From: a virus
Virus record (IMG/VR): IMGVR_UViG_3300045988_176782
Span: 1 to 64,000 of that record
Length of the DNA stretch: 64,000 nt
Direction: 5' to 3' (one strand)
This document shows positions 7,838 to 64,000 of the stretch, piece by piece. How positions within the stretch are numbered: the stretch's first letter is position 1; each line of letters opens with the position of its first letter. Both the position numbers and the translations under genes were made by a program. The notes under the pieces were generated by a model. That model searched no databases, had not been told where the DNA came from, and saw only the letters and a list, made by a program, of their open reading frames with translations.

Positions 7838-9530
7838 GTGAAAACTGAGTTGGCTTATGATATTAATTCAATTCAAAGTCTAACTTTCCGCGAAGGTGTG
7901 CGTCAAAGAATTTCTATGTATTTAGGAACAGATGATATTGAAGGCGCATATCAAGCAATTAAGGAAATATTAAATAATAGCACGGATGAAGCACTTGCGG
8001 GATATGGCAAACAAATTGACATCACTTTAAATTACGATGATAATAGTATCGCAATCCGAGACTTTGGAAGGGGTGTCCCATTTGGTATTAAATCCGATGG
8101 AGAAAATGTTTTAGTTTCGGTCTATACAAAATCTCATACTGGTGGTAAGTTTGATAAAAATAGTTATAAGAACTCATCAGGATTAAACGGTATTGGCGGT
8201 AGTTGCGTATGCTTAAGTTCTAAGTTTTTTAAAGTGATTAGTGTGCGTGATGGTGTCGCGGCAGAAGCTTCATTTATAGAAGGTAATTTACAAAATTATA
8301 AGGAAAGCAAAACTAAAGATAAGAATGGAACTTATGTTGAGTTTATTCCAGATGAAAAAGTTTTTTCAAACGGTGAAATTCAATATGATTATGACAGAAT
8401 TTGTCGTGATGTAAAAGATATTTCCTATCTTTATAGTGGCATCACTTTTAATGTAGATTGTTGTTATGAAGGAGAAAAAATTCATAATACTTATTGTGCA
8501 AAAAATGGTATTCTTGATTTCGTTAAAGAAAACAATGAAAATCCTCTTCATAAAACAATCTTAACTGCGCACGTAGAAGATGAAAATGATCAACTTGATA
8601 TTGCTTTTCAATGGGGAAAAAATAAAGAACAAGGTTATGTTTTCGTAAATGGATTACGAGTGCCAGAAGGCGGCTCACCAATTACTGGTGCAAAAGCGGC
8701 AATTACAAAAACTTTTAATAATTTAGCTAATGCTAAATTTGATGGCGATAGAATTAGAGATGGTTTGTTTTATGTAATAAATTGCAAAGTAACTAATCCT
8801 TCTTTCGCAAATCAAACTAAAAGTAAAATTAATAATCCAAATCTACGGACGCTTGCATCAAATGCTTTTACAGAAGCTTTAAAGAAAATGTCTACAGATT
8901 TTCCAAATGAATTTAAATCAATTGTAGACTTAATGAGTAAAATTGCAAAAGCAGACGCTGCGGCTGAAAAAGCGCGAGAAGCAATTCTAAATCACGAGAA
9001 AAAAGAAGCCACCTCTCGTCGTAAGAAAGTCTTAATGCCAGAAAAGTTTAAAGACTGTGAAAAGCACGGTGAAAATAGCACTTTAATCATTACAGAAGGC
9101 AATTCTGCTCTTGCTGGTTTGAATCCTGCTCGTAATGTAGAAACCGATGCCCTCTATGCTGTGCGAGGAAAAATTAAAAATCTTTTAAAGCATCCTGTTG
9201 AAGAATGTTTGGAAAATCAAGAAGTTAGTGACATTATTACTCTTCTTGGCTGTGGCATCATGGACAAATACAATAGTAAGAAGTTAAATTATGGCAAGGT
9301 TGCCATCGCTTCCGATGGAGACATAGACGGACTTAACATTATGTGTCTTGTTGCGACTTTGTTTATGGTTTTAATTCCAGATTTTGTCAAAGAAGGCCGT
9401 TTATGTTGGCTTCGCGCTCCACTTTATCGCATTAACAATTGTGGAACAAAGTATTACGCATATAATGATAATGAATTGCAAGAGTTTAAAATGAAATTTC
9501 CAAAAGCAGAAATTGGAAGATATAAAGGGT
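7838..9530 (+). CDS. type II DNA topoisomerase ATPase subunit (GyrB/ParE/T4 gp39-like), exon 1
   Basis: GHKL ATPase and Toprim motifs (EILNNSTDEA, GLNGIG, EGNSA, DGDIDG). The ORF breaks inside the conserved ..RYKG|LGEM.. motif. Confidence 0.85.
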
Positions 9531-10582
9531 AAGAGATAGTCTGGCCCTTACTGCCTTTTCCTCTTATCAGAGGGGTCATAAGTAATTATGGCTAACGAGG
9601 GAGCCGTATAAAAATTATAAATAATTAAAAAAGTTCTAACGAAAAAGGACTTGGTGAAATTACTTATAATATGAAAGGTAATCTCGTGGGAAGCAAACTA
9701 CAATATTACCTTATCAAATGAGAAGGTGATATTAATGATTGGAATTTATAAAATTACAAATAAAATAAATAATAAATGTTATATTGGACAATCCACTAAT
9801 ATAGAAGAACGTTGGAAAGCGCATAAAAAGAAAGCTTTCTCTGGAAATGAAGAATCAAATAAAGAATATAATAAAGCTTTGTACAAAGCTTTTAGAAAGT
9901 ATGGAATAGACAATTTTGATTTTTCTGTATTAGAAGAATGTCCACAAACTCAATTAGGTGAGCGAGAAGCTTATTATATTGATTTATATAAAGCAAACTC
10001 AAATCATCATGGATATAATGAAACATCTGGATATGAATATTCTTCTTACGGTATGAGAGAAGAACAACATCCTAATCATAAACTTACTGCTAATGAAGTC
10101 TATTATATTAGAGAATGCTATAATCAACATAAAGATAAGAATGAAGTTTATGAAGAATTTCAAGACAAAATTAATCTAACTGGTTTTCATAAGATTTGGA
10201 ACAATTTTACTTGGAAAAATATCCATCAAGATGTTTATACTGAAGAAAATAGAAGATATTATTTATTTAAACGTAATTCTCATCCAGGCTCAAAAAATCC
10301 AAGAGCGAAATTAAATGAACAACAAGTTTATCAAATTCGTTTAAGAAAGAAAAATGGAGAAAATTGCAAAGATGTATATAAAGATTATAAATATACAACA
10401 ATAACTTATCGCAGTTTTCAACAAGTCTGGAATTATCAAAATTGGAAGAATATTGTAGTTTGAACCTGTAACGACCATCTCCGTTGTTGGAGAGTACATT
10501 TTCTATTGATACGAAAATGGAAACAGGCAGCCACTTAAGTGGAAGAAATGGTCTGTACCATTAGAAATAATGGAATAATATG
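9531..10582 (+). mobile_element. group I intron carrying a GIY-YIG homing endonuclease
   Basis: The exon ends in U and the intron ends in G. P1 pairs exon AAGGGU with intron GCCCUU (about 9546). Joining 9530 to 10583 restores RYKG-LGEM. Confidence 0.8.
9735..10463 (+). CDS. GIY-YIG homing endonuclease (intron-encoded)
   Basis: IGIYKITN...CYIGQS...ERWKAH motifs, with an RBS before ATG 9735. Confidence 0.85.
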   Translation: MIGIYKITNKINNKCYIGQSTNIEERWKAHKKKAFSGNEESNKEYNKALYKAFRKYGIDNFDFSVLEECPQTQLGEREAYYIDLYKANSNHHGYNETSGYEYSSYGMREEQHPNHKLTANEVYYIRECYNQHKDKNEVYEEFQDKINLTGFHKIWNNFTWKNIHQDVYTEENRRYYLFKRNSHPGSKNPRAKLNEQQVYQIRLRKKNGENCKDVYKDYKYTTITYRSFQQVWNYQNWKNIVV

Positions 10583-10770
10583 TAGGCGAAATGCGTCCAG
10601 AAGATGTTGAAGAATCAATGTTTCACACTGAGAATCAGCACTTAGAGTGTCTTACCATTGATGATTTTGAGCAAACATATCAAACTCTTGTTATGCTTAT
10701 GGGCAAAGAAGTAAGCCCGCGTAGAGACTATCTTTTTGAAAATGTTGACTTTAGCGTATTAAATAATTAA
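10583..10770 (+). CDS. type II topoisomerase ATPase subunit, exon 2
   Basis: Encodes (L)GEMRPEDVEES..LMGKEVSPRRDYLFEN, the canonical GyrB C-terminus. Confidence 0.8.
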
Positions 10771-10783
10771 GGAGAGTGTTAAA

Positions 10784-13191: not shown

Positions 13192-13206
13192 ATTTTAATC
13201 TATAAT
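13178..13206 (+). promoter_or_regulatory. sigma-70 consensus promoter
   Basis: TTGACA (13178-13183), 17-nt spacer, TATAAT (13201-13206). Confidence 0.55.
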
Positions 13207-13230
13207 AAATTAAACATTGAGGGTATAAAA

Positions 13231-14677: not shown

Positions 14678-14761
14678 ATGGCTATTGATATTTTTAATAT
14701 TCAACCTTCTAAAATTTCTCGAGACCTTAAGGGAAAATATCTGTTGATTTACGGTGCGCCT
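14678..14761 (+). CDS. Sak4-like AAA (AAA_24/RecA-like) ATPase, exon 1 (28 codons)
   Basis: RBS AGGAG precedes the ATG. Encodes MAIDIF...LLIYGAP, ending in the middle of Walker A. Confidence 0.7.
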
Positions 14762-15819
14762 AAAGTTTTGGGCCGTATGTAAGTAATTATATACGATAAT
14801 TGCTGGAAAAACTGGAAACCTGAAATGGTAATCAGAGCGGAAGTTATAATATAAAAGTTATAACACGCACAACGACTAGGAAAATTAAACATTAAGGAGT
14901 GATTGCGATTGTTATGCGCATCAGAAATAATTAAAAAATATTTACAAGGTGCAAGTTTAGCATCATTAGGTAGAGAATATAATTGCAATTCTTTAAAAAT
15001 TCGTAAATTATTATGTGATAATGGAATTCAAATTCGCTCTCAAAAAGAACAGAATAAATATTCTCCTCAAAATCAAAGAAAATATATTATTAATGATGAT
15101 TACTTAAATTGTATTGATTCTTCTGACAAAGCTTATTTTTTAGGATTTTTTGCCGCGGATGGGACTGTACGAAAAGATGGTAGTTGTAAAATTGGATTGA
15201 GTTCAATAGACAAAAATCTTTTAGAGCAATTTCAAAAAGCATTAGAAACAAACTATCCAATTCGCGATTATATGACTAAAGATGGTTTTGCAGTATCAGA
15301 ATTTTGTTTTAGAAGTTCTAAAATTGTTCAAGAATTTTCTAAATATGGAATTATTAATAATAAAACTTATTCTTTGAGATTTCCTAAAAATATTCCTTCT
15401 AAATATATTATTGATTATATTCGTGGTTTTTGGGACGGAGATGGTACAATTTGTAAATCTGGTGATTATGCAAGAGCATCTCTTTGTGGATATAATAAAG
15501 AATTTCTTGAAGATGTCTTAAATATTTTAGAACAGAATTATGGAATTCCTCGTGTGAATATCTTACAAGTAAAAGATAAACACGCCTATTATTTTCAGTA
15601 TGCTTCCTACGCTACGGAAAGATTATATCATTGTTTTTATAAAAACAAAGATTCTAATCAATTATATTTAAATCGTAAATATTTAAAATTTAAAGAACTC
15701 TTTGGTGAAATAAATTCCCATGAGCCAGTAACTTCCCAAGCGGAAGAAAAGATAGTCTGACCTTACAAGAAAAAAATTGTAAGAATTATAGGATAAAGAG
15801 CCTATAAGATAACATATTG
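14762..15819 (+). mobile_element. group I intron carrying a LAGLIDADG homing endonuclease
   Basis: P1 pairs exon GCCU with intron GGGC (14770-14773). The intron ends in G at 15819. Splicing restores GAP|KTGKST (GxxxxGKS/T). Confidence 0.75.
14903..15760 (+). CDS. LAGLIDADG homing endonuclease (intron-encoded)
   Basis: Two LAGLIDADG motifs: FLGFFAADGTV and IRGFWDGDGTI. Confidence 0.85.
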   Translation: MRLLCASEIIKKYLQGASLASLGREYNCNSLKIRKLLCDNGIQIRSQKEQNKYSPQNQRKYIINDDYLNCIDSSDKAYFLGFFAADGTVRKDGSCKIGLSSIDKNLLEQFQKALETNYPIRDYMTKDGFAVSEFCFRSSKIVQEFSKYGIINNKTYSLRFPKNIPSKYIIDYIRGFWDGDGTICKSGDYARASLCGYNKEFLEDVLNILEQNYGIPRVNILQVKDKHAYYFQYASYATERLYHCFYKNKDSNQLYLNRKYLKFKELFGEINSHEPVTSQAEEKIV

Positions 15820-16725
15820 AAAACTGGTAAATCAACCTTTGGCAGCAAGCTTCCTCGTAGTTTATTTCTTCAATTTGAACAGGGCACTAACGCCTTAGAC
15901 GGCATTCGTGGCGTTCCCATGCTAAAATGGACGGATATGAAACAAGTTCTTCGTCAGTTACGCGACCCTCGTGCGCAAGAAATGTATGATTCAATCGTAG
16001 TAGATACGGTTGGTATTGCTTGGTCTCTTTGTGAAAATTATATCTGCTCTCAAAACGGAGTTTCTCAGATTAACGAAATTCCTTGGGGCGGTGGATTTAA
16101 GCTTGTAAAACAAGAGTTCCAAGAAGTCTGGCGTGAAATAACGCTACTTGGTTATGGTATCCTTTTTATTGCTCACGAAAAAGAACGCACAACTGAAATG
16201 CGTGATGCTGATGGTGAGCAAATTCGTGCGGTTGCGCCAGACCTTCCCAATGCGCCTTATTCTATTATTAATAGTCTGGTTGACATTATTGGGTATTTAT
16301 CTACTCAAATGAATGCTGATGGGACTACTGAACGATATTTATATACTCGTGCAACTCCTCATGTGTTTGCGGGCTCTCGTTATAAGTATATCGCACCTCG
16401 CATTTCTTTTAATAATGACGGCTATACTGAGTTAGTTAATGCAATTGGTGACGCAATTGACCGCCAAGTCCAAGATGATGGCGCACAAGTAACCGACCAC
16501 ACTGAACTACCAATGCCCTCTAATGTTCGTTCTTTTAATGAAACAATGAATGAAGCTCGTGAATTATGGAACAAGATTGTTGCTGCACGAGGCGATGAGG
16601 GCAAAAATAAGATGCACGAAATTATAACTAATGTCTTTGGTCATGATGTTCAATTATCTAAAGTAACAGAAGACCAACAAGATTTCGTTGAACTTGTTAT
16701 TGATGATTTTAAGAAATTAATTTAA
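15820..16725 (+). CDS. Sak4-like AAA ATPase, exon 2
   Basis: Begins KTGKSTF (second half of Walker A) and contains Walker B-like IVVDTVG. Confidence 0.75.
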   Translation, partial: KTGKSTFGSKLPRSLFLQFEQGTNALDGIRGVPMLKWTDMKQVLRQLRDPRAQEMYDSIVVDTVGIAWSLCENYICSQNGVSQINEIPWGGGFKLVKQEFQEVWREITLLGYGILFIAHEKERTTEMRDADGEQIRAVAPDLPNAPYSIINSLVDIIGYLSTQMNADGTTERYLYTRATPHVFAGSRYKYIAPRISFNNDGYTELVNAIGDAIDRQVQDDGAQVTDHTELPMPSNVRSFNETMNEARELWNKIVAARGDEGKNKMHEIITNVFGHDVQLSKVTEDQQDFVELVIDDFKKLI

Positions 16726-21345: not shown

Positions 21346-22414
21346 TAACTAAATGGCCCTTCATTCTTTTCCAGTTCATCACTGGGGTCACAAGCGTGGC
21401 TAACGGTCTATCGTAATAAGATGGTAAGAAAAGCTAAACCGAAAGGCAGAGCTAATACCGTGAAGGTTATAACTAATGGGAAAATACATTTATCAAATTA
21501 TCAATGATATTAATAATAAGCAATATATTGGACAAGCAAACAATCCTCAACGACGTTTTACTGAACATTGTAAGCAATCTGAAAATAGTGTAATTCATAA
21601 AGCAATCGTAAAATATGGAAAAGAACACTTTCATATGAATTTATTAGGATATTTTGAAAATTATAATGAAATGGAAAAATATTATATTAAAGAATATAAT
21701 ACTTTAATTCCAAATGGTTATAATGTTATGGTCGGTGGAGAAGAGCCACCTGTTCTAAAAGGGGAAAAAAATCCCGCAGCAGTTATTACAGAAGAAGTAG
21801 CGCGAAAAATTCAACAAGATTTATTAAATCCAGATATTTTACGAAAAGATATAAAAAAGCGATATGGAGTTTCAGAAAACATTATTCGTCATATAAACGA
21901 AGGAAGTAGTTGGCGAATTGATGAATATAACTATCCATTGCGCCCCTCAGAAGCACAACTGATTGAAGAAAAAGTCAAACAGGTAAAGCGTTTATTAAAA
22001 GAAACTTCGCTTACACAAAAAGAAATTGCAGAAAAATTTGGTTTTAAGCGTTCCTTTGTAACAATGATTAATATTGGACAAAATCATTACGATGCGACAG
22101 AGAATTATCCTATTCGTAAGCGTGATGTAAGACGCACCGCGCCAGTTGAAAGAATTATTGAGCTACTTCAAACAACTAATATTCCTATGAATAAGATTGC
22201 TGAACAATTACAAATTAAAAAAGATATTGTTTATAATATTAATTCTGGTAAAACCTATCATAATGATAGTTTGAATTATCCTATTAGAAAATAACTTTTG
22301 TAACGACTATCCGCGAGGAGTAAGACTACTATTGATACGTAGTTTGAAATGAGAATGGTATTTATAAAAATACTAAGAGCTAGTCTGGCTTTATGGAAAC
22401 ATAAAGATAAAACG
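21346..22414 (+). mobile_element. group I intron carrying a GIY-YIG homing endonuclease
   Basis: P1 pairs exon AGGGU with intron GCCCU (about 21356). The intron ends in G at 22414. Splicing gives YVQG|HKNAAG. The core resembles the intron at 9531. Confidence 0.8.
21476..22294 (+). CDS. GIY-YIG homing endonuclease (intron-encoded)
   Basis: YIYQIIN...QYIGQA...RRFTEH motifs, plus repeated HTH-like modules at the C-terminus. Confidence 0.85.
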   Translation: MGKYIYQIINDINNKQYIGQANNPQRRFTEHCKQSENSVIHKAIVKYGKEHFHMNLLGYFENYNEMEKYYIKEYNTLIPNGYNVMVGGEEPPVLKGEKNPAAVITEEVARKIQQDLLNPDILRKDIKKRYGVSENIIRHINEGSSWRIDEYNYPLRPSEAQLIEEKVKQVKRLLKETSLTQKEIAEKFGFKRSFVTMINIGQNHYDATENYPIRKRDVRRTAPVERIIELLQTTNIPMNKIAEQLQIKKDIVYNINSGKTYHNDSLNYPIRK

Positions 22415-22931: not shown

Positions 22932-25456
22932 GTGCAGAAGTATCCCGGAAGTATTCATTGCCATACCGATTATAGCAATATACGGCTTCGTGATAGTATT
23001 AATAAAATGCCAGATTTAATTAATTATGCAATTGAATTAGGGCATAGTTGTATTGGCATTACTGACCATGAATGTCTATCAAGTTTTGTAGATGTTGAAA
23101 ATTATGTTGAATCTTTAAAGAAAAAAGCTCAAAAAAATAATGAAGAATTTTCTTTTAAAGTTATTCGTGGAAATGAGATTTATTTAACTCGTAATGGTCT
23201 ATCTGCTTCTAACTTTAACAAGGAGCGTGGAGATGATTATTATCACTTCATTCTTCTTGCTAAAGATTTAGAGGGATACCATCAGCTTTGTGAGTTATCA
23301 ACTCGCGCATGGATGCGGTCTTATGTATCACGACGTATGAGACGAGTTCCAACTTATTATCAAGATTTAAAAGATATTGTAAAAACTAATCCTGGACATT
23401 TAATCGCCAGCACAGCTTGTTTAGGTGGCCAGCTTCCAAAATTTTTATTAAAGTTTAGAGAAACACAAGACCAAAAATATTATGAAACTGCAAAAAAATG
23501 GTGCTGTTATATGCAAGATATTTTTGGAGTAAATGATTTCTATTTGGAAATGCAACCTTCTGATAAAAATGAACAAACATATGTTAATAAAATGTTGCTT
23601 CAATTGAGCAATGAATTAGATATTCCATATATTATCACCAATGATGCGCATTATTTAAAAAAAGAAGAAGCACCACTACATGAAGCATATCTTAATTCAC
23701 AAGATGGTGATCGCGAAGTTAAATCATTTTATGAATTTACTTATCTTATGAGTTCAGAAGAAATTAGTTATTATTTTAAATATTTATCTCCTGAACAATT
23801 AGAATATGCTTTTAAAAATATTGAAGAAATCGCAAATAAATGCCAGGAATATTCTATTAAGAAACCTTTAAAAATTCCTCAGTTGCCTTGGTTAAAACAT
23901 CAACAGTTTTCTCAAGAAATTAAACAATCATACATCAATCAAATTCCAACTTTAAAAGAATTTGAAAATTCTACCTATGTTGGCGATAAAGAACTTGTAA
24001 ATGCAATTATTGAAGGCATTCAAAAACATAAAGACATCCAAAACGAAAAAGCATATACTGCATTAGAAGAATGTTTGCAATTAACTTGGGTATCAAGTGA
24101 AGTAAATAAAGCGCATTGGAGTGCATATTATTTAAATCTTCAAAAAATTATTGAAGAATGTTGGAATGCAGGTTCTATTATCGGTCCCGCTCGTGGTTCT
24201 GGCGGCGGATTTTTGTTATTATATTGTTTGGATATTATCCAAATGAATTGTCTCCGCGAGAAAACTAAAATGTATCCTTGGCGTTTCTTAAATCCACAAC
24301 GTGTTAGTGTGCTTGATATTGACTTCGATATTAGTGGATTAAAAAGACAAGACGTATTAAAGCATCTAATTGATACTTACGGACGAGATAAAGTTTGTAA
24401 TGTTTTAACTTTAAGAACTGAAAAATCTAAAAGCGCAATTTTAACTGCTGCTCGTGGTTTGGAACTGCCTCCAGAAGAAGGCTCATATTTAGCTTCATTA
24501 ATTGGAGCTGAACGTGGTCAACTTTATTCTTTAAAACAAATGTATTATGGTAGTGAAGAAGATGGCTTAAAACCAAATAGTACATTTGTAGAAGAAATGA
24601 ATAAACGACCACAGTTATGGGCATTAGCTCAACGCATTGAAGGCGTTATTTGTGGTGCTGGTATTCACGCGGGTGGTGTGGTATTTGTTGATGAACCTTT
24701 TACAAAAAGTTGCTCATTAATGCGAGCGCCTGATGGAACAGTTATTAGTGGTTATGACCTTCATCGTTTGGAAGAATGTTCTTTGATTAAGTATGATGTT
24801 CTTTCCGTTGAAGGCGAAGACCGTATTCAAACTTGTTTAGAACTTTTAATAAAATATAGTTATGTGCAGCCAGAAAAAACATTAAAAGAAACTTATGAAA
24901 AGGTCATAGGTATTTATAATCTTGAGCGTGATGACCCAAAAATGTGGGAAATGATTCATCAGCACAAAATTGTAAGTTTATTTCAAATGGAAAAATCTTC
25001 TGGTATTCAGGGTATTGCCGCAACTAATCCCGAAAGTGTTGATGACCTCGCCGCGTTAAATTCTGTTATTCGTTTGATGGCTCAAGAGAAGGGCGGTGAA
25101 AGTCCAATTGATAAATTTGCACGATTTAAAAAAAATCCTCAATTGTGGGAAGAGGAAATGATTCAATATGGTTTAACACCAGAAGAACGCCAACTTCTTC
25201 ATAATGAATTAGATATTACTTATGGACTTTGTATTAGTCAAGAACAATTTATGATGTTGGTTCAATTGCCAGAATTAGGCGGCTATGATTTGCAATGGGC
25301 AGATAAATTAAGAAAATCTATTGCAAAAAAGAATCCTAAAGCATATATGGAACTTTCAAAAGAATTTTTAGAGAATATAGATAAAAAACATCTTTCTCGG
25401 AAACTTTGTGAATACACTTGGAATGTTCTAATAGCGATGAATAAAGGCTACGGCTT
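22932..25456 (+). CDS. dnaE: DNA polymerase III alpha subunit (DnaE-type), exon 1
   Basis: PHP domain (HCHTDYS, ITDHE), the polymerase core, and a break inside the GYGF|N.SH motif. Confidence 0.85.
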
Positions 25457-26597
25457 TAAATATTGGAGCCACTATGTAGTAATATATAGTTAAAAATTCT
25501 TTAAATTGCGGGAACTCCCTTAGAGCCTTAATAACTAAGTAAATATAGCGATATATTTATGGCGTTCAGTAACGGGAACGGTATAGTAAAATCATTAAGG
25601 ATTGGGTAATCTAACGCAGCGAAATCTCTAAGGAAAAAATAAACTAAAAAAAGAAATCTATTGAAAACCATATCCCTCCAATTACATAAATGATGGAGGT
25701 GGTTCTAATGAGCGCGAAGATTTTATCAAATGAACAAGAACTACAATTAGTACAAGAATATCTCAACGGAGAAAGTGTTATTAATCTACAAAAAAAATAT
25801 GGTTATAAATCTAAAAAATCTATTCTTGATAAGATTAAAAAGCACTTAGGACGCGCTTTAAGTGAAGAAGAACTTAAAGAAATTCATGACAAACGTAAAG
25901 GGTATTCAGTAGATTTCTCAAAAATTAATAATCCCTTTAATGCGTATTTTATTGGTTTAATGCTAACAGATGGGTATATTTGTGATAATAATAAATTTGG
26001 TATTGACTTAACAGATGAAGATGCAATTGCTTTTTTATCTGACACAATTGGAAAAACTTATACAAGTTATACATCTGAAGATGAAAACCGCAAAATAAGA
26101 TATAGATTGATTTTATCAGATGCTTCTCAAGTTGAAGCATTAAAACGATATGATATTGTGCAACGTAAGTCAAAAATATTGTCAGGTTTTGAGCTATTGG
26201 AAGAAGAAGAAGTTTATTTGCCATATTTAATTCGTGGAATTATTGATGGTGATGGTTGTATTTATACAACTTCTTATGGCAAACCTGCATTCTTCATTGT
26301 GACCGCTTCAAAAAAATTCGCGGATTGGCTAACTTATATTTTATCACATCGTTTTTATATGAAAGATATTCATCCATATCAAACTACTAATGGCATTTGG
26401 CGAATTGATACAGCATTAGAATATAATATAAGGATTTTAAAAGATATTATTTATGACCAGCCTTATGGTATGGCTCGTAAATATAATAAACTTAGAGAGA
26501 CGTTCAACGACTATAATAAGAACATCCAAGAATAATTTGGATGATGGTATAGTCTAGACCACAACTTTTAAAGGCTTATGAAAGTAAGTGTGGTAAG
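25457..26597 (+). mobile_element. group I intron carrying a LAGLIDADG homing endonuclease
   Basis: P1 pairs exon GGCUU with intron GAGCC (about 25467). The intron ends in G at 26597. Splicing gives GYGF-NASHTSGYS. Confidence 0.8.
25708..26535 (+). CDS. LAGLIDADG homing endonuclease (intron-encoded)
   Basis: FIGLMLTDGYI and IRGIIDGDGCI motifs. RBS GGAGGTGG precedes ATG 25708. Confidence 0.85.
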   Translation: MSAKILSNEQELQLVQEYLNGESVINLQKKYGYKSKKSILDKIKKHLGRALSEEELKEIHDKRKGYSVDFSKINNPFNAYFIGLMLTDGYICDNNKFGIDLTDEDAIAFLSDTIGKTYTSYTSEDENRKIRYRLILSDASQVEALKRYDIVQRKSKILSGFELLEEEEVYLPYLIRGIIDGDGCIYTTSYGKPAFFIVTASKKFADWLTYILSHRFYMKDIHPYQTTNGIWRIDTALEYNIRILKDIIYDQPYGMARKYNKLRETFNDYNKNIQE

Positions 26598-28071
26598 CAA
26601 TGCAAGTCACACCAGTGGGTACAGCTTGGTCGCATTACAAGAGATGAACCTTGCTTACAAATATCCAATTATTTTCTGGAACACCGCAAACTTAATTGTG
26701 GATAGCGCGGGGCTTCCTGAAACAGAAGAAGATGACCCAGAAACATTAAAGACAGAACTTGAAGATGACGAAGAAGAACAAATCGTAGATATTTATGAAC
26801 CAGAAGATTGGGAAGAATATGATTATGAAGATTTACCAGATAAAAGCGCAAAAAAGAAAAAGAAAGTAAAGAGTGTAGATTTTGGTAAAATCGCCGCGGC
26901 AATTGGTAAATTTCAACAAGAGGGAATTACAATTTTGCCGCCAGATATTAATAAAAGCGAATATAGTTTTACTCCTATTGTAGAAGAAAACGCAATTGCT
27001 TCTGGTCTAAGAGGCTTAACAAGAATTTCAGCGGATTTAGTTAAAACTATTATTACAAATCGTCCTTATGTTTCTATTGACGATTTTATGGAAAAAGTTA
27101 AAGTTAATAAGCTTCAAATGTTAACTTTAATTAAATGTGGTTCATTTGATACCTTATATCCAAATAGGATGGGATTGCTGAATCAATATCTTGGAAAAAT
27201 TGCCGGAACAAAAAATAATTTAACTTTAGCAAATGTGCCAATGTTAATTAAATATGATGTTTTTCCTGATGGTTGTGAAGAGTATATTGAACTTTACCAT
27301 TTTAATAAATTTATTAGGAAATTCTTAAATAAAGAAACTGGAATAATTAGTTTGCCAGAAAAAGCATTAAATCACTTTTGTGAATATTATGATATAGATT
27401 TATTAATTGATGGTAATACTTTAAGATTAAAGGATTGGGAAAAACTTTATAAGAAACAAATCGCGCCTTTAACTGATTTTATTAAGGAAAATAAAGATTG
27501 TTTATTAGAAGATTTAAATCGTAAAATTGTTGAAGAAATGTGCGAAATAAATATAAGCGGCAATATTTCTCATTGTGAAATGGAAGCTATGTCATTTTAT
27601 TATCATGACCATGAATTAGCTAATTTAAATAGAAATCTTTATAACTTAGAAAATTTCCAAAATATTTCTGAAAATCCAGAAGTAGATAGAATTTTTAATA
27701 CTAGAGATGGCAAAGAAATTACTTTGTATAAATTACACTATATTGCTGGAACAGTATTGGATAAAAATAAAATGAAAAACTCTATAACGCTACTAACCCC
27801 TGATGGCGTAGTGATTGTAAAGATTTGGAAAAATCAATATGCAAAATATGATAAACAAATTAGTATTGTTGGTGATGATGGTAAGAAAAAAATTATGGAA
27901 CGTAGTTGGTTTAAACGTGGAACTTTATTATTTCTTCAAGGTATTCGTCGCGGCAACAATTTTATTCCAAAAGCCTACAAAGGTAGCCCATATCGTGTTC
28001 CAATTATGAAAATTTTAGAAGTTAATGATGATGGCACAATAATATTTACTAATAAGCGATTTGATGAATAA
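26598..28071 (+). CDS. dnaE: DNA polymerase III alpha subunit, exon 2
   Basis: Continues NASHTSGYSLVALQEM.. and carries an OB-fold-like C-terminus. Confidence 0.8.
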
Positions 28072-32694: not shown

Positions 32695-32721
32695 AAGAGG
32701 CTTTATGCCTCTTATTTTTTT
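32695..32721 (+). terminator. intrinsic terminator
   Basis: AAGAGGC-TTTAT-GCCTCTT hairpin followed by a T-run. Confidence 0.7.
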
Positions 32722-32730
32722 AGAAAAAAT

Positions 32731-32759
32731 TTGACAAAAAATATTTTTTAATTTATAAT
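32731..32759 (+). promoter_or_regulatory. sigma-70 consensus promoter
   Basis: TTGACA (32731-32736), 17-nt spacer, TATAAT (32754-32759). Confidence 0.6.
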
Positions 32760-32786
32760 AAGAAAAAAGGTTAGGGAGTAATCAAT

Positions 32787-54026: not shown

Positions 54027-54366
54027 CCTTTATGTTACGAAAAGATTCGCTATATCTTTCCTTCTACAGGCTTTCCCTGTAGAGCAGACTATATATTCAT
54101 CCTTGTTTTACAAGGCGGGAGCCTTTTCAGACCGCTTGGCCTTACGAGAGCGTAACTCTCTAGTCGTTGAACCTTCTTCTTGCGAAGCTTGGCTGCGGGT
54201 TAAGCAATCTTTAACTTTTTTACTGTACCAAAGCCACTACACTTTGCCGCATATTTTTGATATGTTTAGTAGTCAAAGCTCTAAGCCTTTCCCCGTCAAT
54301 TAAACTCCATTCATATTAAGGATTGCTCCTTAACGACCCTAATTCAAGAAACCTTGAAATTTAAGG
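54027..54366 (-). mobile_element. ORF-less group I intron in the tape measure gene
   Basis: On the - strand it contains AATTGACGGGGAAAGGCTTAGAGC, GGTTCAACGACTA, ATATATAGTCTG and the ..CGTAACATAAAGG 3' end, which are family motifs shared with the other introns. The reading frame shifts between its flanks, and splicing joins ..EATRES|ENIGSALK... The junction is accurate to about 3 nt. Confidence 0.7.
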
Positions 54367-56481: not shown

Positions 56482-56484
56482 ATA

Positions 56485-57300
56485 TTATATACCAGAGATG
56501 TCTTCATCAAGATATTGTATTTCGCATACAACATCATCTCTTCCTTCCTTTGTCTCTGGCTACGCTATAACTCTAAAAGTAGACACCATAGGGTCTGCTC
56601 TTTCTCCCATTCTCAAATTAATATTACTCAATATACGAATTTTAGGCATACGCAAATAACCTGTGCGTAGTAAGCCCTCATTCTCATCCTTCATTTGAAA
56701 AGTGGCTTCAAGAGTATATAAATTCGTAAATCTCTCACGATTCATAGAATAAGTTATTATATCTTTTTTATATTCAAAATAATAATCGCACATAATGGTT
56801 TGGTCGGCAAATTCTTTTCCAAAATCAATCTTTAAATTGTCAATTAAAATAGGAAAAATGCGGCCTTGAATATTGTTGAAATCATAAGTAAAGAAAAAGT
56901 TTTTATATTCTATATCATTCAAAATAGGATGATACTTTAAATACCCTTTTCCATTCTCATCCAACATAATAACTTCATTATATGGTAAAATATTGTCGTC
57001 TACTTTATTTAACATATTCGCGCCAAGAAGTAGGTTAAAACTTATTGTATTTATCGTTCCATTAGAAAACGCAAATGTTGTTTCTTGACGGTCCTCCCAA
57101 ATAACGCGAGGTTCATTATGCCAACCGCCACGAGCCATAATAGGGCGGACATTTTCAGAAAGAAGCGCAATTTGTAAGTTATCAAAATAAATGACTGGTT
57201 CGCCTGCTTCAAGTAATCTTTCTCCGAAGGCGACTTCATTTTTTGTTTTTATACAAACGCGCTCAAGATTTTTTATACCAAGTTCTTCAAGAGTGTTCAT
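56485..57300 (-). CDS. tail tube-like protein, paralogue of the major tail protein (246 aa to TAG, 271 aa if TAG is read through)
   Basis: RBS GGAGGT plus ATG 57300. It shares LGIK.. and A.GGW.N....W.. blocks with the intron-split gene upstream. TAG at 56560 is followed by 24 more sense codons to TAA 56485-56487. Confidence 0.55.
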
Positions 57301-57328
57301 TATTTACCTCCGAAGATAAAAAAATAAA

Positions 57329-57396: not shown

Positions 57397-57463
57397 TCAA
57401 TATTTTACTAGAGAGAACATGTTTCCATCATTATCGCGGAGCACATTCAAAGTCATACTAAAT
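57397..57463 (-). CDS. major tail (tube) protein, exon 6 of 6
   Basis: Encodes (T)FSMTLNVLRDNDGNMFSLVKY, ending at TGA 57397-57399, about 40 nt before the terminator. Confidence 0.55.
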
Positions 57464-57602
57464 CATTTTTCTTGCGTTGTATCGCTACTACAACTCTTAT
57501 AATTTCTTATAAGATGAGACTATATCATTCATCAATTTCTTGATTTAACTGCTCTTTCGAGTGCGCTTACACCCTACTTCCTTACGGAATAGTCGTTGAA
57601 CC

Positions 57603-58322
57603 TTAATCCAAAAATTTCCATTTATATCCAAAAGTGGTGATTCGTTTTCCTTCACATACCGCACGAATATTACGACCAGCCGCCGTAGGTTTGCCTAAAG
57701 CTCTTGCCGCCTCATTGGCTGAAGAAAAAGTGGCTATTAAATTTCCTTCTAAATCATATTGTCCAGTTTTTCGTCCGTGTGTTTTCTTGGCATTAACTGG
57801 AATAACACAATTATCTTCTTTATATTTATAAATTGAGTCTTTATAATGCGTAATCTCCCCACGACAATTCTGCGAAACAGCTTGATAGGGTATACCCATT
57901 TTTCTTGCGCATTCTTTTATAGATGCGAAACTTTCAATAAAAATCCCTTCTAAATTATAACGAGAAACTTCACGTTTTAAGCTACAAGTATTAGCTATAT
58001 ATTCTACTGCTCCTCCTGGTTTAATATTATAACCATATTGAGGATTTTGCGTTTTATACAATTGAATATAATATTTTTCTTTATCATTTAAATCTTCATA
58101 AGGGACTTCTTCTAAAATTTCTACAATAAAATTTTCATAACCATACTTTTCAAAAGCTCGCATAAGTGCCGTACAATTTCGATACCCTTTTCCGTCTTTT
58201 CCTGCACGAATTTTTAAAGACTCAATTGTTTTACCGACATATTTTTTATTAGATGGAGAAGTATAGCAATAAATAAAGCCATGATTTTCTTTTGGACGCT
58301 GTTTTAATAATTCTGTATTCAT
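57603..58322 (-). CDS. GIY-YIG homing endonuclease (intron-encoded)
   Basis: GFIYCYTS..KYVGKT..KIRAG motifs plus repeated C-terminal DNA-binding modules (..GYKWKFLD). It contains no TAG. Confidence 0.85.
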   Translation of the reverse strand: MNTELLKQRPKENHGFIYCYTSPSNKKYVGKTIESLKIRAGKDGKGYRNCTALMRAFEKYGYENFIVEILEEVPYEDLNDKEKYYIQLYKTQNPQYGYNIKPGGAVEYIANTCSLKREVSRYNLEGIFIESFASIKECARKMGIPYQAVSQNCRGEITHYKDSIYKYKEDNCVIPVNAKKTHGRKTGQYDLEGNLIATFSSANEAARALGKPTAAGRNIRAVCEGKRITTFGYKWKFLD

Positions 58323-58343
58323 ATTTTCCTTTCTTGGATTCTT

Positions 58344-58452
58344 GGCTGCTGATTGCCCAATCCTATTTTATGTTACTACAAATTTTTATATTTGTCAAAT
58401 TATTACTAATTTGTTGAGTTAAATAGGCTCTAAGGGGATTCCAGCAATTAAG
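58344..58452 (-). repeat. intron-internal repeat, copy A (intron 5)
   Basis: About 109 nt, near-identical to 60667-60774. On the - strand it includes TTGACA-N17-TAACAT and a palindrome ACAAAT..ATTTGT. Confidence 0.7.
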
Positions 58453-58498
58453 CAGTTTTTACTTCCACATTTAAGCCGTGACTTTTCGGATTAGGTTC

Positions 58499-58631
58499 GT
58501 GGAAGGATCGCCTTCTGCCTGCATGGTTAAGGTTACTTCGCTCAACATCTTAGCCTTGTTGATGATGAATTGGAAAGCTTCATCCTTACCAGTGGCTTCA
58601 GAACGAATTAGAGCATCGCCTACAACCTTGT
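58499..58631 (-). CDS. major tail (tube) protein, exon 5 of 6
   Basis: Encodes (Y)KVVGDALIRSEATGKDEAFQFIINKAKMLSEVTLTMQAEGDPS(T). Confidence 0.55.
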
Positions 58632-59749
58632 CATTTTTATTATCGTTTCCTAAACTTCTTATATTTTCATATAAGATTAGACTATATCTTCACACAAATT
58701 ATTTGAGTGTTCGGCACTAACCTCAAGGAATTTAGAGGTATTTAGTCGTTGAGCCTTGAGCAAGTTTTCCATTTAAATCCATAAGCCGTATTGGTATCTT
58801 TATCTAATACTTTACGAATTAAACTTGTTTCCTTTCCGAGACTTTTCGCCGCGGCAGTAATGGAAGGGAAAACTTGGATAATCTTCTTTGTTATTGGGTC
58901 AATTTGTTGAATTTGCTTCGCAGTGTTATTATATTTTTTAACCATTAAAATTTCTGTGCATTCCCAACGATAACCATAAGCACTTTTTAATTCATTACGA
59001 CAACAACGACGAATTGCAGAACGTTCACCGTTCACTGCTCTCGCCGCTTCTGCTAAAGAAGGAAAAGTGTTTATCAATATCCCGTCTAGAGAAAATTGCT
59101 TAATCTTTTTTTCACTATTATCTACAATTCTTTCATGAATAGGGAATCTATTTAATTTTTCATAGCTCCAACAAAAATTATATTGGGTATATACTTTATT
59201 TTCTAAACAACCTTGAAAAGTTTGAGGAACTGTATTAAAAGCTTTTGCAACTTCTGATATATTTTCCCACTCTCTTATAAAAGAACCGTTTTGACTTGAA
59301 TATTGATATACTTTTTTACGTTCTTTAGACCAGCCTTTTTGACCACCATCGGTTAAATTATAACCATTTGGCGCTAAAGTATTAAATAATTGAATATACT
59401 TTTTTTCAGCCTAGTCTAATTGGTTTTTTGGGACTTCTGCTAAAATTTCAACAGTAAAATTAGAAAAGCCATATTTTTGAATTGCTTTATAAAATAAATC
59501 ACACCCTTTATAGCATTTTCCATTATGGCCCGCTCTTTCTTGCAGAGAACGAGTTGTTTGCCCAACATAAGAAGAACCAGATGGAGATGTATATTTATAA
59601 ATAAATCCATAACCACTCTTTGGTCGTTTTTCCATTTTAATACTCCTTGGTTGCTGATTGCCGGCCATTTCAGGCTACGGTTTCCAGCAATTCACCGAAT
59701 TGATTTGCATTTTTTAACTCCCCGCGTGGAGCCCTACAATGTTGAGGAA
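58632..59749 (-). mobile_element. group I intron 4 of the major tail protein gene, with GIY-YIG HEG
   Basis: P1 pairs exon GGAACCU with GGGCUCC (one mismatch). The intron ends ..CGATAATAAAAATG. Core motifs are present. An alternative junction 9/11 nt away is also in frame. Confidence 0.6.
58742..59635 (-). CDS. GIY-YIG homing endonuclease (intron-encoded) with one in-frame TAG
   Basis: RBS AAGGAG plus ATG 59635. GFIYKYTS..SYVGQT..QERAG motifs. ORFs 59411..59668 and 58742..59077 are in the same frame. I hand-translated the whole gap and the only interruption is TAG 59411-59413. Confidence 0.75.
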
Positions 59750-60220
59750 AGGTTCCAGGGAATGTAGAAGGACTAATAACGATTTCAGAAGCGGTGCCTT
59801 CTTCAACTACTTCCTCTTCCCAGAAGAAACGAATCTTAGTGATTTCGGTGGCGGCATCAGCAAAAGGCTTAGTGCCAGTCTTTAAAGTAACAGTGAATTT
59901 CGCGGGATCGCTGCCATCATTAGTTACAGTATCAACTTCGCCAGAGCCACGTAGGCCGTGAGTCATGTCAACCCACTTAAACTTGAAGCCAGCCTTTACA
60001 ACATCCTCACCAGGGAAGTTGTTCTTACCGCCCATAGTCTTCCCATCACCCATTGGGAAGGTAAAGGTTTCACCAACCTTAAAGTTGCGTTCAGCGTTCT
60101 TATAAATAGTAACAGTGTGTTCGTCAGTGGACTTATTATACATCGCACCACCCATGATAATGCGTAGTTCTTCCCAAGATACTACAGCATCTTCTAGGGT
60201 TACATTGATGTCCTTACCAT
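59750..60220 (-). CDS. major tail (tube) protein, exon 4 of 6
   Basis: Carries most of ORF 59670..60155 (..DINVTLEDAVVSWEELRIIMGG...FTVTLKTGTKPF..). Confidence 0.6.
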
Positions 60221-60468
<248 letters not shown>

Positions 60469-60493
60469 AGTCCCAAGTGACCAATTTAGGATT
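60469..60493 (-). CDS. major tail (tube) protein, exon 3 of 6 (25-nt micro-exon)
   Basis: AATCCTAAATTGGTCACTTGGGACT encodes NPKLVTWD plus 1 nt and lies between two intron cores. A 13-nt version that starts after ..AAATTG is also in frame. Confidence 0.55.
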
Positions 60494-60813
60494 CATTGTG
60501 TTCCACATAGTTCGCTAATCTATGCGCGGATTTCTCCTGCTTATGATTTCTCATAATGTTCAGACTATATCTTCATCTTTAGATGGGTCTAAAGAGTCCC
60601 CTGTTTCGTGAGGCTTCTCACTACAATTAGTCGTTGAACCTTTCTCTTTTGGCCTTAAGAGATTTGGCTGCTGATTATCCAATCTTGATTTATGTTACTA
60701 CAAATTTTTACATTTGTCAAATTATTACTAATTTGTTGAGTTAATCAAGCTCTAAGGACGTTCCAGCAATTAAGAGGATTTTTCCGTTGAGGCAAACCTA
60801 AGTATGTATGTCA
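60494..60813 (-). mobile_element. ORF-less group I intron 2 of the major tail protein gene (320 nt)
   Basis: 8-bp P1 pairs exon GUUGGGGU with GCCUCAAC. Family core motifs are present. It shares a ~108-nt near-identical segment with intron 5. Confidence 0.7.
60667..60774 (-). repeat. intron-internal repeat, copy B (intron 2)
   Basis: See copy A. Only a handful of substitutions are visible by eye. Confidence 0.7.
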
Positions 60814-60960
60814 ACCCCAACCGCCCTGAGCTGAAACATTTTCAGCAGTAGTTTCTACAGTAGAAACCTTTAGGGTATTTAAATAAAGTACAATATCGCC
60901 GGCTTTGATGTCTCCTTCGTCGGCTAGAGCTTGGAAATAAACGTTAGCTACTTCCTTAAT
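60814..60960 (-). CDS. major tail (tube) protein, exon 2 of 6
   Basis: Encodes IKEVANVYFQALADEGDIKAGDIVLYLNTLKVSTVETTAENVSAQGGWG. It aligns with IKNLERV...ARGGWHN of the paralogue. Confidence 0.6.
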
Positions 60961-61783
60961 CAATTATGTTACGATTGAACCTGTTATCAATCTCTTATAG
61001 TTTCCTATAAGTTCAGACTATATCTTCATCCGATTTCTCGGAGTCTTGCACAGGAGAAGCAGGATTTTCTTCTCGCTTAGTCGTTGAGCTTTCTAAAAAG
61101 TATTTCCAAACATATCCTCCCGCAGTTTTTCGCTTGCCACGAACACATTGCGTAATAGAACTACGACAAGTTCCAGTCTATTCACTTGCCTCACGTTGAG
61201 AATCATAAACTTTTAACAAATGGCCCTCTAAATCATATTGTGCTACTTTTATTTTAGACGCTTCCGCACCTAAAGGCTGAACCTTTTCAACCCATTCTTT
61301 TACACTTTCTTCACGATGTTTCCCAGAAAAACTATGTTTAGTATTTTCAGAATAAGTAGTCCATTCTAAATTATTAACACAATTATTAGATTTATTAAAA
61401 TCTTTATGATTTACAACAGGATAATTATTTGGATTACTAATAAAAGTAGAAGCTATAATTCTATGAGCACGATATAAATGTCGAGATAAAGATACTAATA
61501 AATAACCATCTTTGTCTTTCCATTGTGAAACAAGTTCTTTTGTGCTTTTATCACGAATTTGCCCATTCTCACAAGCTTCATAATTATTATCAACGGGAAC
61601 TGTTTTCCACATTATTTATTGTCTCCTTTTTAGCTTAGTTGCTGATAGCCCATTGTTGCATCTTATTATTTTTTAAACATTCACGCTTGCATTTGCACGC
61701 TTCGTTGTAGTAAATAAGCTTTAGGGCGTTCCAGCAATTCACAAGAATTGTCAGTAAGAATTGCTCCTTACAGTGGCATTTCT
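60961..61783 (-). mobile_element. group I intron 1 of the major tail protein gene, with HNH HEG
   Basis: The 3' end ..CGTAACATAATTG matches the family. P1 is short (exon UGGU with GCCA). An alternative 5' junction 12 nt downstream is also in frame. Confidence 0.6.
61013..61612 (-). CDS. HNH homing endonuclease (intron-encoded) with one in-frame TAG
   Basis: RBS AAAGGAG plus ATG 61612. HNH_3-type motif VVNHKDFNKSNNCVNNLEW. TAG 61178-61180 is followed by a typical C-terminal DNA-binding module (..CVRGKRKTAGGYVWKY). The frame then runs into the intron core to TGA 61013. Confidence 0.7.
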
Positions 61784-61813
61784 ACCATAACGTTCAAAGA
61801 TGTTAATGGCCAT
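61784..61813 (-). CDS. major tail (tube) protein, exon 1 of 6 (10 codons)
   Basis: RBS AAGGAGG plus ATG 61813, encoding MAINIFERYG. The junction YG|IKEV mirrors LGIKNL in the paralogue. Confidence 0.5.
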
Positions 61814-61827
61814 ATTAAACATCCTCC

Positions 61828-62592: not shown

Positions 62593-63070
62593 TAATCTAA
62601 TAATACATCGTATAGCCGCCCATCTAAGGAGAAAGGGTCAATGGAACACACTATACAAACTGTAAATTACCCAAACCACTAAGTTTCGCTTGATTAAATA
62701 GACTATCAATTTCCTACATTAATAAATAAGGCCGCAAATTACCTTCATCAACAATCCATTCTGTATAAGGACAAACAACCTCAAAGCGCACAGTAGAATA
62801 TTTGAAATCTGGATTTTGCGGATTGATAATATATTTATCAAATATAATTGTTATATAGGAGCGCTCTATATTATCAATTTCAGGATACTTTGGAACAATA
62901 ATGAAATTCTCATTCAACAAAGATAACCCATCTACATCCGGAAGTGTAGGGTCAAACGGATTAGAATTTTGATATTTAAGTAGACGACAAATGCGCTAAT
63001 TAGTCGTTAACTTATTAATAATCTTATATAAGTTTTCGCCCATTACGGCGAATCTGCGTTGTGTCGCCAT
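62579..63070 (-). CDS. hypothetical structural-module protein (163 codons) read through 5 in-frame TAG codons
   Basis: RBS AGGAGG 8 nt before ATG 63070. I hand-translated it through TAGs at 62996, 62714, 62650, 62623 and 62597 down to TGA 62579-62581, which overlaps the next gene's start. Confidence 0.55.
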
Positions 63071-63072
63071 AA

Positions 63073-63807
63073 TTAAGCCTCCTACCATAAAGCATAAATA
63101 TCAATTGATTTAGTGTAAGATTGACCATTATATTCTGTAGAAAGAATAACTTTGCCAAGTTTATTACGTTCATTTGCTTTGACAATACATTTATTGCCTT
63201 GATTCTGTATAGAAGCAAGAACTGTATTATCAATAACAAAATCTGTTTCAACTGCACCAATATCTGGCATAACTAATTCATAGGAAGCAGAGCGTCCCAT
63301 CCGAATAAAATTGTCGCCGTTGATATAACCAATCGGCGCGGCACCACCAATGATAACTTTAAGCGTAAGCATTAAGTTTTCATAAGTAAGCAATAATTCA
63401 GTTTCGCCCGCTTCAGTGGCAATTAATTCACCATTTTCATTGTATGATATTTTTTCACTTGGAACTAAAGTTGCTTTAAGGTCTTTTTGAATAACGCCAT
63501 TTTTTAATAAAGTATAAATAGGATTAATAATTTCTCCTACTTCTACTGATAATTGTAATGGAGCATTAATACTCCAAACTTGCAATTTATCAATATTAGC
63601 AATTTGTTCTTGTACGCTATCTCGCAATTCATTTACTTTACTTTCAGTAAAAGATAAGTAAATTGTGCCTGGAACAGATACACGGTCATATTCAATTAGT
63701 TCCCAAGCTTCATCATATAAAATGATTTCTGTTGATTTTTCAATTGGTTGATAAGGCATCAATACTTCCATAAACTTATTTGGCTGGGGCGTAATAAGCT
63801 CGTTCCA
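63073..63807 (-). CDS. 3' exon of a structural protein with Ig-like (Big_2-like) repeats; 5' exon lies beyond the window
   Basis: The ORF 63082..63810 frame begins right at an intron 3' end. Beta-rich Ig-like segments are present (..LQLSVEVGEII.., ..KCIVKANERNKLGKVILSTEY..). TAG 63082 is followed by 2 codons and TAA 63073. Confidence 0.5.
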
Positions 63808-64000
63808 CAATAGACTATATCTTCATCCATTTCTGGAGGCCACCACTTCGGCATTTGCCTACTCCTTTACGGATAGTCGTTGAACTTTACCTTTCGGTCT
63901 TAGCTGCTGATTGTTTATTTTCATCTGGCTTTTAGGATTACTCCATAAGCTATCTTTTCTTTTTTTTCTGCTTTCGCGGCATTCGCATTTAAGCCAAAAT
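63808..64000 (-). mobile_element. 3' part of a group I intron (truncated by window edge)
   Basis: On the - strand it contains AATCAGCAGC, AGTTCAACGACTA and GATATAGTCT in family order, immediately upstream of the exon. A short open frame ending at TGA 63921-63923 enters from outside the window and may be the tail of a HEG. Confidence 0.6.

Follow-up and report, generated by a model that had tools for sequence, protein, structure and literature searches.

A 64,000-nucleotide (nt) stretch of phage DNA, positions 1 to 64,000 of the IMG/VR record IMGVR_UViG_3300045988_176782 (hereafter, the window), contains twelve inserts within replication and structural genes, which are very probably mobile group I introns of two structural types, referred to below as the main type and the second type. 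The mapped inserts sum to 9,666 nt, or 15.1% of the window, with a density of one intron per 5.3 kilobases (kb). An initial annotation, made from the letters alone, had proposed at least 12 introns covering ~9.7 kb and ~15% of the window, which the mapping bears out, and its coordinates were reproduced within 0-3 nt wherever it gave a boundary. The source of the window is an uncultured phage of roughly 167 kb. Two IMG/VR contigs, IMGVR_UViG_3300045988_170892 and _173030 (166 and 168 kb), have 84-96% identity across most of the window; these are called the sister genomes here. Related loci are labelled L001, L002, etc., and L001, L002, L003, L004, L014, L017 and L019 are from the sister genomes.

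Five of the introns interrupt early genes on the + strand: those for the topoisomerase II B subunit (9531-10582, second type, with a GIY-YIG open reading frame (ORF)), a Sak4-like AAA_24 ATPase (14762-15819, main type, LAGLIDADG ORF), a RecJ-like DHH protein (21346-22414, second type, GIY-YIG ORF), DnaE (25457-26597, main type, LAGLIDADG ORF) and dUTPase (35335-36606, main type, LAGLIDADG ORF). Splicing in silico keeps all five frames open and restores RYKG|LGEM, GAP|KTGKS, VQG|HKNAAG, GYGF|NASH and ATI|DSGYRGE, respectively (bars mark the junctions), and each spliced protein gives a single tblastn match spanning the junction in at least two relatives. The other seven introns, all of the main type, are on the − strand: one in the tape measure gene (54027-54363, ORF-less), five in a virion structural gene and the twelfth in the next structural gene upstream (63808 to beyond 64000, its 5′ part past the window end). 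For 11 of the 12 introns, sister phages or distant homologues have an intron-free allele with exactly the predicted junction, a count that leaves out the twelfth, whose upstream exon is beyond the window end. Ten of the eleven 5′ splice sites within the window follow a U and one a C (57464-58498), the terminal nucleotide is G in all twelve introns, and P1 helices of 4-8 base pairs (bp) were read for ten. The earlier proposals that the flanking frames rejoin at conserved motifs and that the 5′ exon ends in U with one exception were thus correct.

The ten main-type inserts have one group I core in common. With the Rfam model RF00028 (gathering score, 50 bits), the covariance search suggested in the initial annotation returned matches for eight of the twelve introns. 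Three of them, on the − strand, were above the threshold (60540-60866, 78.5 bits; 60253-60478, 71.9; 54064-54359, 65.5), and the lowest E-value was 3e-18. Relaxed matches were found at 36327-36570 (+, 49.6 bits), 58658-58874 (−, 38.9), 60994-61175 (−, 36.4), 57496-57681 (−, 29.4) and 59481-59739 (−, 22.1). The weaker matches are intron halves divided by endonuclease ORFs, and the ORF-less orthologues of three low scorers in the sister genomes reach 75-87 bits. The Rfam structure alignments support a P3-P9 core. At the sequence level, TCAACGACTA, allowing at most one mismatch, occurs 12 times versus 3.0 expected, and AATTGCKGGRA occurs 16 times versus 5.8 expected; none of 100 shuffles had as many of either. 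All ten main-type inserts have the core strings in the right order, in line with the earlier statement that most of the introns share them. In addition, an nhmmer sequence profile built solely from ORF-less introns of the sister genomes, when run on the window, found nine of the ten main-type introns (E 4e-53 to 2e-7). This relatives-only profile had no matches elsewhere, and therefore no further main-type introns are seen in the window.

The most heavily interrupted gene is a six-exon virion structural gene (57397-61813, − strand; exons 61813-61784, 60960-60814, 60493-60469, 60220-59750, 58631-58499 and 57463-57397). Its introns 1 to 5 are located at 60961-61783 (HNH/NUMOD ORF), 60494-60813 (ORF-less), 60221-60468 (ORF-less), 58632-59749 (GIY-YIG/NUMOD ORF) and 57464-58498 (GIY-YIG-type ORF), respectively. 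The locus spans 4,417 nt, 80% of which is intron, and the spliced coding sequence is an open frame of 873 nt (290 codons) with neither stops nor TAG. The spliced protein aligns end to end with phrog_2729 ('virion structural protein') at an E-value of 2.9e-47; with only the largest exon as query, the value is 0.004. Homologues number more than 2,000, and among the 120 listed almost all are single uninterrupted proteins of 265-300 amino acids (aa) with 97-100% query coverage. The restored junctions (ERYG|IKEV, GGWG|NPKL, TWD|Y, PGT|Y and ST|F) fall inside invariant blocks of nine aligned homologues: ERYG|IKEV, GGWG|NPKL, TWD|YGKD, FPGT|Y(K/R)V and GDPST|F(S/N)MTL.

Each of the five introns was placed individually. 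Intron 1, with its HNH/NUMOD ORF at 61013-61612, has an ORF-less orthologue in L002 that scores 75 bits with RF00028, and the relatives-only profile matches both halves of the window copy (E 1.9e-27 and 1.4e-29). Intron 2 scores 78.5 bits and has an 8-bp P1, GUUGGGGU/GCCUCAAC; GGWG|NPKL in the homologues fixes both of its ends. Two other placements for this intron were rejected: the P1 drawn by Rfam is too far upstream, inside the exon, and is contradicted by the homologue alignment, and a 3′ end at 60536 instead of 60494 would add 14 residues including a TAG, which are intronic according to the homologues. Intron 3 scores 71.9 bits, with P1 GGGACU/GGUCCC, and the homologues read TWDYGKD without interruption. 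Intron 4 (ORF 58742-59668; 38.9 bits) is absent from L002, and its ORF-less orthologue in L001 scores 77.9 bits. Intron 5 (ORF 57603-58322) is absent from L001 and, at the same site, from L002; the relatives-only profile matches both halves (E 2e-22 and 2e-9), RF00028 matches the 3′ half with 29.4 bits, and the homologues read GDPSTF(N/S)MTL.

The product of this gene had been labelled the major tail protein, an identity that is not established; it is a phrog_2729 virion protein, probably a tail tube. This assignment is made because the gene is just upstream of the tape measure gene, adjoins an intron-free paralogue and has tail tube proteins among its matches in a PDB sequence profile search, at only E ~0.45. 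A homologue's AlphaFold model was discarded as a search query since its quality was too poor (mean predicted local distance difference test score 55.9, below 50 in the conserved core). Given the poor model and the PDB E-values, the tail tube label is tentative. The paralogue, at 56485-57303 (−) between the five-intron gene and the tape measure gene, itself matches phrog_2729 with an E-value of 2.5e-15.

Three of the early-gene introns are of the main type. The Sak4 intron, the most divergent main-type copy, has the core strings at 14798, 14869 and 15750 and an ORF at 14903-15760 (LAGLIDADG_3, E 2.6e-15); its removal restores the Walker A motif, GAP|KTGKS, and it is absent from four relatives, each of which gives one junction-spanning match. 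The DnaE intron (ORF 25690-26535, LAGLIDADG_3 E 1.8e-6; P1 GGCUU/GAGCC) is matched by the relatives-only profile at 25478-25632 (E 1.6e-16), and the gene is uninterrupted at this site in L003, L004, L005 and L008. In the dUTPase intron, the guide, which pairs as CAACCAU/GUGGUUG, is downstream of a double-motif LAGLIDADG ORF (35356-36414; LAGLIDADG_3 E 5.4e-11), and the ribozyme core is at 36327-36570 (RF00028 49.6 bits, E 1.4e-9). The difference in length between the window and the two sister genomes at dUTPase is exactly 1,272 nt, with one junction-spanning tblastn match.

The topoisomerase and RecJ inserts lack the core strings quoted in the initial annotation, which mentioned neither this second type nor the recoding described below. 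They resemble each other and three inserts in related loci, located in a DnaB helicase gene, at the topoisomerase site DADD|DGAH and in a thymidylate-synthase-like gene. The topoisomerase intron has a GIY-YIG ORF (9735-10463; Pfam GIY-YIG E 1.4e-13) looped on a 13-bp stem and P1 AAGGGU/GCCCUU with a U.G pair; it is absent from L017, one of the sisters, where a tblastn match spans the junction. The RecJ intron has a GIY-YIG ORF at 21476-22294 (E 1.8e-11) and P1 AGGGU/GCCCU. The five second-type sequences were aligned after removal of the ORFs. RNAalifold predicted 47 pairs, 28 of them with compensatory changes. An explicit structure of 10 helices including the P3/P7 pseudoknot leaves 97.1% of the cells paired, versus 31-45% when the partners are slid by 1-3 columns; both sides vary in 29 of its 49 pairs, and 500 shuffles gave no equally good result.

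These pairings indicate that the second type has a group I architecture, probably of the IA kind, and it may resemble the T4 td intron (IA2). P1 carries U.G at the splice site in all five sequences, P3 differs in all five, and P4 is CGAG/CUCG, CGGU/ACCG or CGGG/CCCG. P7 is ACGACUA/UAGUC, with ACGACCA/UGGUC in the topoisomerase copy, and covarying hairpins stand at the P7.1 and P7.2 positions between P7 and P3′. A long stem surrounds the endonuclease ORF, and the 3′ end runs P8, P9, terminal G. The 5′ half contains two extra hairpins between P3 and J3/4, which were matched to no named subgroup. When GenBank phages were searched with the second type by blastn, the sole match had 57 nt and was located in a gap without annotation in Enterococcus phages EF1 and EF5.

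The tape measure gene has ~4,010 codons in two exons (56445-54364 and 54026-44058, −), and its exon matches tape-measure PHROGs; at this exceptional length, the tail would also be very long, provided that the usual length-ruler rule applies. Its intron scores 65.5 bits with RF00028. The sister locus L001 is uninterrupted at this site (...GAAAGTCCC|GAAAACATC...; RESP|ENIG, AGTCCC|GAAAAC), and therefore the 5′ splice site is at 54364|54363, which corrects the boundary of 54366 in the initial annotation to 54363. The twelfth intron runs on the − strand from 64000 down to 63808, as P4′-P6-P7-P8-P7′ of the main type, ending in ...GATATAGTCTATTG|TGGAAC, with the P7 and P7′ strings at 63883 and 63821 and a relatives-only profile match of E 1.2e-15. 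Its orthologue in L001 has 80% identity and a score of 86.7 bits. Where the window passes through 63808-63821, this orthologue (L001 1645-2423) has a P9 hairpin and a ~770-nt GIY-YIG gene between P7′ and the same 3′ junction; therefore, the window's copy has lost both, and it appears to be at a deletion stage in the homing cycle.

Eight of the introns contain endonuclease ORFs with Pfam support (four GIY-YIG, three LAGLIDADG and one HNH), the number given in the initial annotation. The HNH_3 and NUMOD1 match in the ORF of tail-gene intron 1 extends across a TAG. For the ORFs of tail-gene introns 4 and 5, NUMOD1 matches have E-values of 1e-16 and 5e-11, and the GIY-YIG motif was recognized by eye, with weak Pfam support. 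The ORFs are placed in the P1 loop (dUTPase), within P6 (DnaE, topoisomerase, RecJ and tail-gene intron 1) or between P7 and P7′ (Sak4).

The introns are polymorphic among closely related genomes. Seven of the window introns are missing, at exactly these points, from at least one sister genome, and both lack, as exact blocks, the inserts in RecJ, Sak4, dUTPase and DnaE. Conversely, introns are found in the sister genomes at eight or more sites where the window has none. Their inserts correspond to window positions 3565/3626 (ligase), 18437/18438 (DnaB), 20287/20290 and 20445/20461 (RecJ), ~34738 and 54499/54500, and to a position 18 nt upstream of the window's tape-measure intron. Others are at MQA|EGD in the tail gene, at DnaE residue ~450 and probably in nrdD. 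The eight or more sites include a second one in the topoisomerase gene, located in the Toprim DxD motif, and two further ones in the tape measure gene. Over the sister genomes and the window, which are 91-96% identical, presence or absence varies at 15 or more intron sites, and the tail gene alone has at least six distinct sites in the three genomes. A 129-nt core of the window's DnaE intron is 96% identical to a RecJ intron of a sister genome, and therefore one intron lineage occupies different genes. The homing cycle is represented at different stages, by copies that contain an ORF, copies without one and degraded copies.

Two side observations concern the relatives of these introns and their host genes. 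Stretches of intron core (60241-60287 and 58658-58690; 33-47 nt, 94-100% identical) recur in LR756504.1, a 636-kb uncultured phage, as well as in a phage contig from human faeces and Flavobacterium phage FPSV-D18, and therefore related introns circulate widely among unrelated phages. Apart from these 33-47-nt stretches, megablast searches of GenBank phages with DnaE and the tail region as queries gave no matches, so that no close relative was found, and tblastn with the largest tail exon gave none in the same set. The second observation is that the intron-bearing genes are far more diverged from the intron-free sister alleles than their surroundings are (window 7838-10775, 14678-16725, 22932-28071 and 34754-36801 compared with L003, L004, L017, L019 and L020). 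The flanking DNA is 88-95% identical, whereas amino acid identity is lower in Sak4 (~55%), DnaE (~47%), topoisomerase B (~61%) and dUTPase (~73%), RecJ (97%) being the exception. This divergence looks like allele replacement travelling with the introns.

The window, with a G+C content of 30-39%, is divided into two gene blocks. Up to ~37 kb, the genes are on the + strand and form a replication module: RNase H, ligase, PhoH, topoisomerase II B and A subunits, the Sak4-like ATPase, DnaB helicase, primase, RecJ, DnaE, NrdD/NrdG and dUTPase. Beyond this point, the − strand encodes structural proteins, including the tape measure protein, two phrog_2729 virion proteins and large proteins of the distal tail. 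In the standard code, the − strand region is fragmented into ORFs that are short. If TAG is taken as sense, the region contains ORFs of 3,323, 1,466, 694 and 562 codons, with 37, 15, 11 and 9 in-frame TAGs, respectively. In alignments with sister-genome codons, 34 of the 42 differing partners of TAG are CAA or CAG, and therefore TAG in the late genes is read as encoding glutamine. The standard code leaves the early ORFs intact, and TAG terminates only 1 of 31. The region with TAG as sense covers 37946-63822 (−) plus 32697-33794 and 36802-37530 (+); the two TAG-containing + strand genes, near the strand switch, encode a membrane/coiled-coil protein that ends with a GIY-YIG domain and a RuvC-like protein. 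A tRNA search of the window and ten related loci gave no match, and hence no suppressor tRNA. The late ORFs are thus fragmented for two reasons, recoding and introns, and the introns needed to be separated from the recoding.

The recoding extends into the introns. Two of the three late-gene endonuclease ORFs have an in-frame TAG, whereas the early-gene endonuclease ORFs have none. In tail-gene intron 1, the TAG is at residue 145, within the NUMOD1 match (121-157), and in tail-gene intron 4, the NUMOD1 domains are downstream of the TAG; therefore, both endonucleases would be fully translated only under the late code. The code switch and the intron load might conceivably be functionally linked, with the in-frame TAG tying the late-intron endonucleases to TAG-to-glutamine suppression, although we consider such a link unlikely. 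If it existed, DNA cleavage and homing would be timed to late infection, and the recoded late genes would be a protected niche where introns accumulate, up to five in a 290-codon gene and at least seven sites in the three sister genomes. Expression of the tail-tube-like protein would also hinge on five successive ribozyme reactions, a possible checkpoint.

Several results weigh against twelve functional group I introns. In the whole-window scan, RF00028 matched none of the DnaE, RecJ, twelfth and topoisomerase introns, the last of which also gave no match when its region was searched alone; the Sak4 intron, searched alone, scored a non-significant 13.3 bits, and its P4 has a mismatch as read. 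The guide pairing of 4-8 bp with a U.G pair, proposed initially, is weak (3-4 bp) in the tape-measure intron. The twelfth intron, only partly in the window, lacks P9 and passes almost directly from P7′ to the 3′ splice site. In tail-gene intron 5, the sole junction that restores S-T-F and leaves a terminal G puts a C at position −1, and its 7-bp P1, CUUCCAC/GUGGAAG, has C-G instead of the near-universal U.G at the cleavage site. In the Tetrahymena ribozyme, a C at −1 weakens cleavage. Furthermore, only four of nine predicted introns of Bacillus phages self-spliced in vitro, versus eight of nine in infected cells (PMC11878797).

These results leave some room, although not much, for the possibility that a subset of genuine group I introns is decaying, with inefficient splicing and host genes that are impaired or dependent on helpers. 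The candidates would be the twelfth intron, without P9 or its orthologue's endonuclease gene, tail-gene intron 5 with C at −1, and the weakly scoring Sak4 copy; splicing solely in vivo is known in other phages (PMC11878797). However, genes of an essential type, such as those for the virion structural protein and the recombination ATPase, have intact conserved exons, and their mRNAs are presumably still repaired. It is far less probable that some of the interrupted genes were fractured by free-standing homing endonucleases, with the halves translated separately and assembling as subunits. The phage T4 topoisomerase gp39/gp60 is an example of such a fractured gene. Here, the downstream exon of the topoisomerase gene has an in-frame ATG (GEM), preceded by a weak AGG, close to its start, and Rfam is blind, or nearly so for Sak4, to the early inserts other than that of dUTPase. 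On the other hand, the five early inserts start after U, end in G and have a P1 pairing each, together with covarying P3, P4, P6, P7, P8 and P9 elements. Several upstream exons would also be useless by themselves (for Sak4, 28 aa from the Walker A region; in the tail gene, exons of 10 aa and 8 aa), and the exons have no start codons and ribosome-binding sites of their own. Finally, although many in-frame TAGs do fragment the late ORFs under the standard code, there is hardly any chance that the interruptions are inteins or artefacts of reading the recoded region in that code, since the inserts retain TAA and TGA stops and shift the frame even with TAG as sense, match an RNA family and are absent as precise blocks from relatives, while the spliced tail coding sequence has no TAG and Hint/intein domains gave no significant match (Intein_splicing in GyrA, 17 bits versus a cut-off of 35.8), in agreement with the initial annotation, which had also ruled out inteins.

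If the twelve inserts act as mobile group I introns, as we favour, each would be transcribed within its host gene and would fold into a P1-P9 ribozyme core, whose internal guide would pair with the last bases of the upstream exon. Two guanosine-initiated transesterifications, self-catalysed or protein-assisted, would then excise the intron and rejoin the exons exactly inside the conserved motif, yielding functional topoisomerase B, Sak4 ATPase, RecJ, DnaE, dUTPase, tape measure protein and tail-tube-like protein. In mixed infections, the eight intron-encoded endonucleases would cleave the allele without the intron in a related phage, and repair would copy the intron in. An endonuclease gene is lacking in four introns, one of which has visibly lost it together with P9. 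Splicing, endonuclease activity and homing are predicted here from sequence.

Gene callers would fragment this genome twice, by TAG recoding and by introns, with about one-sixth of the DNA being ribozyme and endonuclease. The window and the two sister genomes also offer a natural experiment on intron gain and loss, in which ORF-containing and ORF-less versions of one intron and a P9-less copy are available for studying the homing cycle. In addition, they provide a panel of new predicted homing endonucleases with known target sites in conserved motifs, as well as compact predicted ribozymes of 248-337 nt, and the five-intron transcript raises the question of how folding and splicing proceed correctly.

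Among the long-known systems, phage T4 has three introns per 169 kb (td, nrdB and nrdD; subgroup IA), and the richest gene of the Staphylococcus phage Twort, orf142, has three. As in these phages, the introns of the window occupy nucleotide-metabolism and structural genes at conserved motifs, the ORFs are looped from peripheral stems, and P7.1/P7.2 helices are present, here in the second type. The window differs in having five introns in one gene and twelve in 64 kb. The introns of Bastillevirinae belong to IA2/IA3, and their HNH, GIY-YIG or LAGLIDADG ORFs halve the ribozyme signature, one half being undetectable by covariance models in 10 cases (PMC11878797); ORF-split ribozyme halves are likewise missed in the window. 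Those phages use the standard code, and their introns number no more than three in a gene and six in a genus-level genome set (PMC11878797). In the Jug (jumbo gut) phages, essential genes (terL, nrdD and DNA polymerase) are fragmented by numerous group I introns and homing endonucleases, and metatranscriptome reads support the splicing of 37 of 76 predicted introns (PMC12363816). These phages have a mean of 18.5 introns, mostly ~206 nt and ORF-less, per 360-402 kb and no alternative genetic code (PMC12363816), and their intron density is roughly a quarter of that of the window.

Recoding and introns have also been found together. In Agate phage, an intron-encoded homing endonuclease gene contains in-frame recoded TGA codons, and the recoding was proposed to hold back production of the endonuclease until the code has switched (Borges et al., bioRxiv 10.1101/2021.08.26.457843). 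There, the codon is TGA and the intron is in an early gene, whereas here TAG (glutamine) occurs in two endonuclease genes within a late structural gene. A close parallel is the Zeta group of crAss-like phages, with genomes of 145-192 kb, up to 14 introns plus as many as 3 inteins in a single genome, an 'unprecedented' group I intron density and a capsid gene in five fragments (Yutin et al. 2021, PMC7886860). Both they and the window phage combine late genes that read a stop codon as sense with dense group I introns. However, the window phage encodes DnaE instead of PolA/PolB and has a ~4,010-codon tape measure gene, and therefore it is not crAss-like. It also packs 12 introns into 64 kb, with no inteins seen in the window. 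High intron density combined with late-gene recoding has thus already been published, and the window is an unusually dense case of the same phenomenon, in which five ribozymes in one 873-nt coding sequence exceed the number in any reported phage gene that we found.

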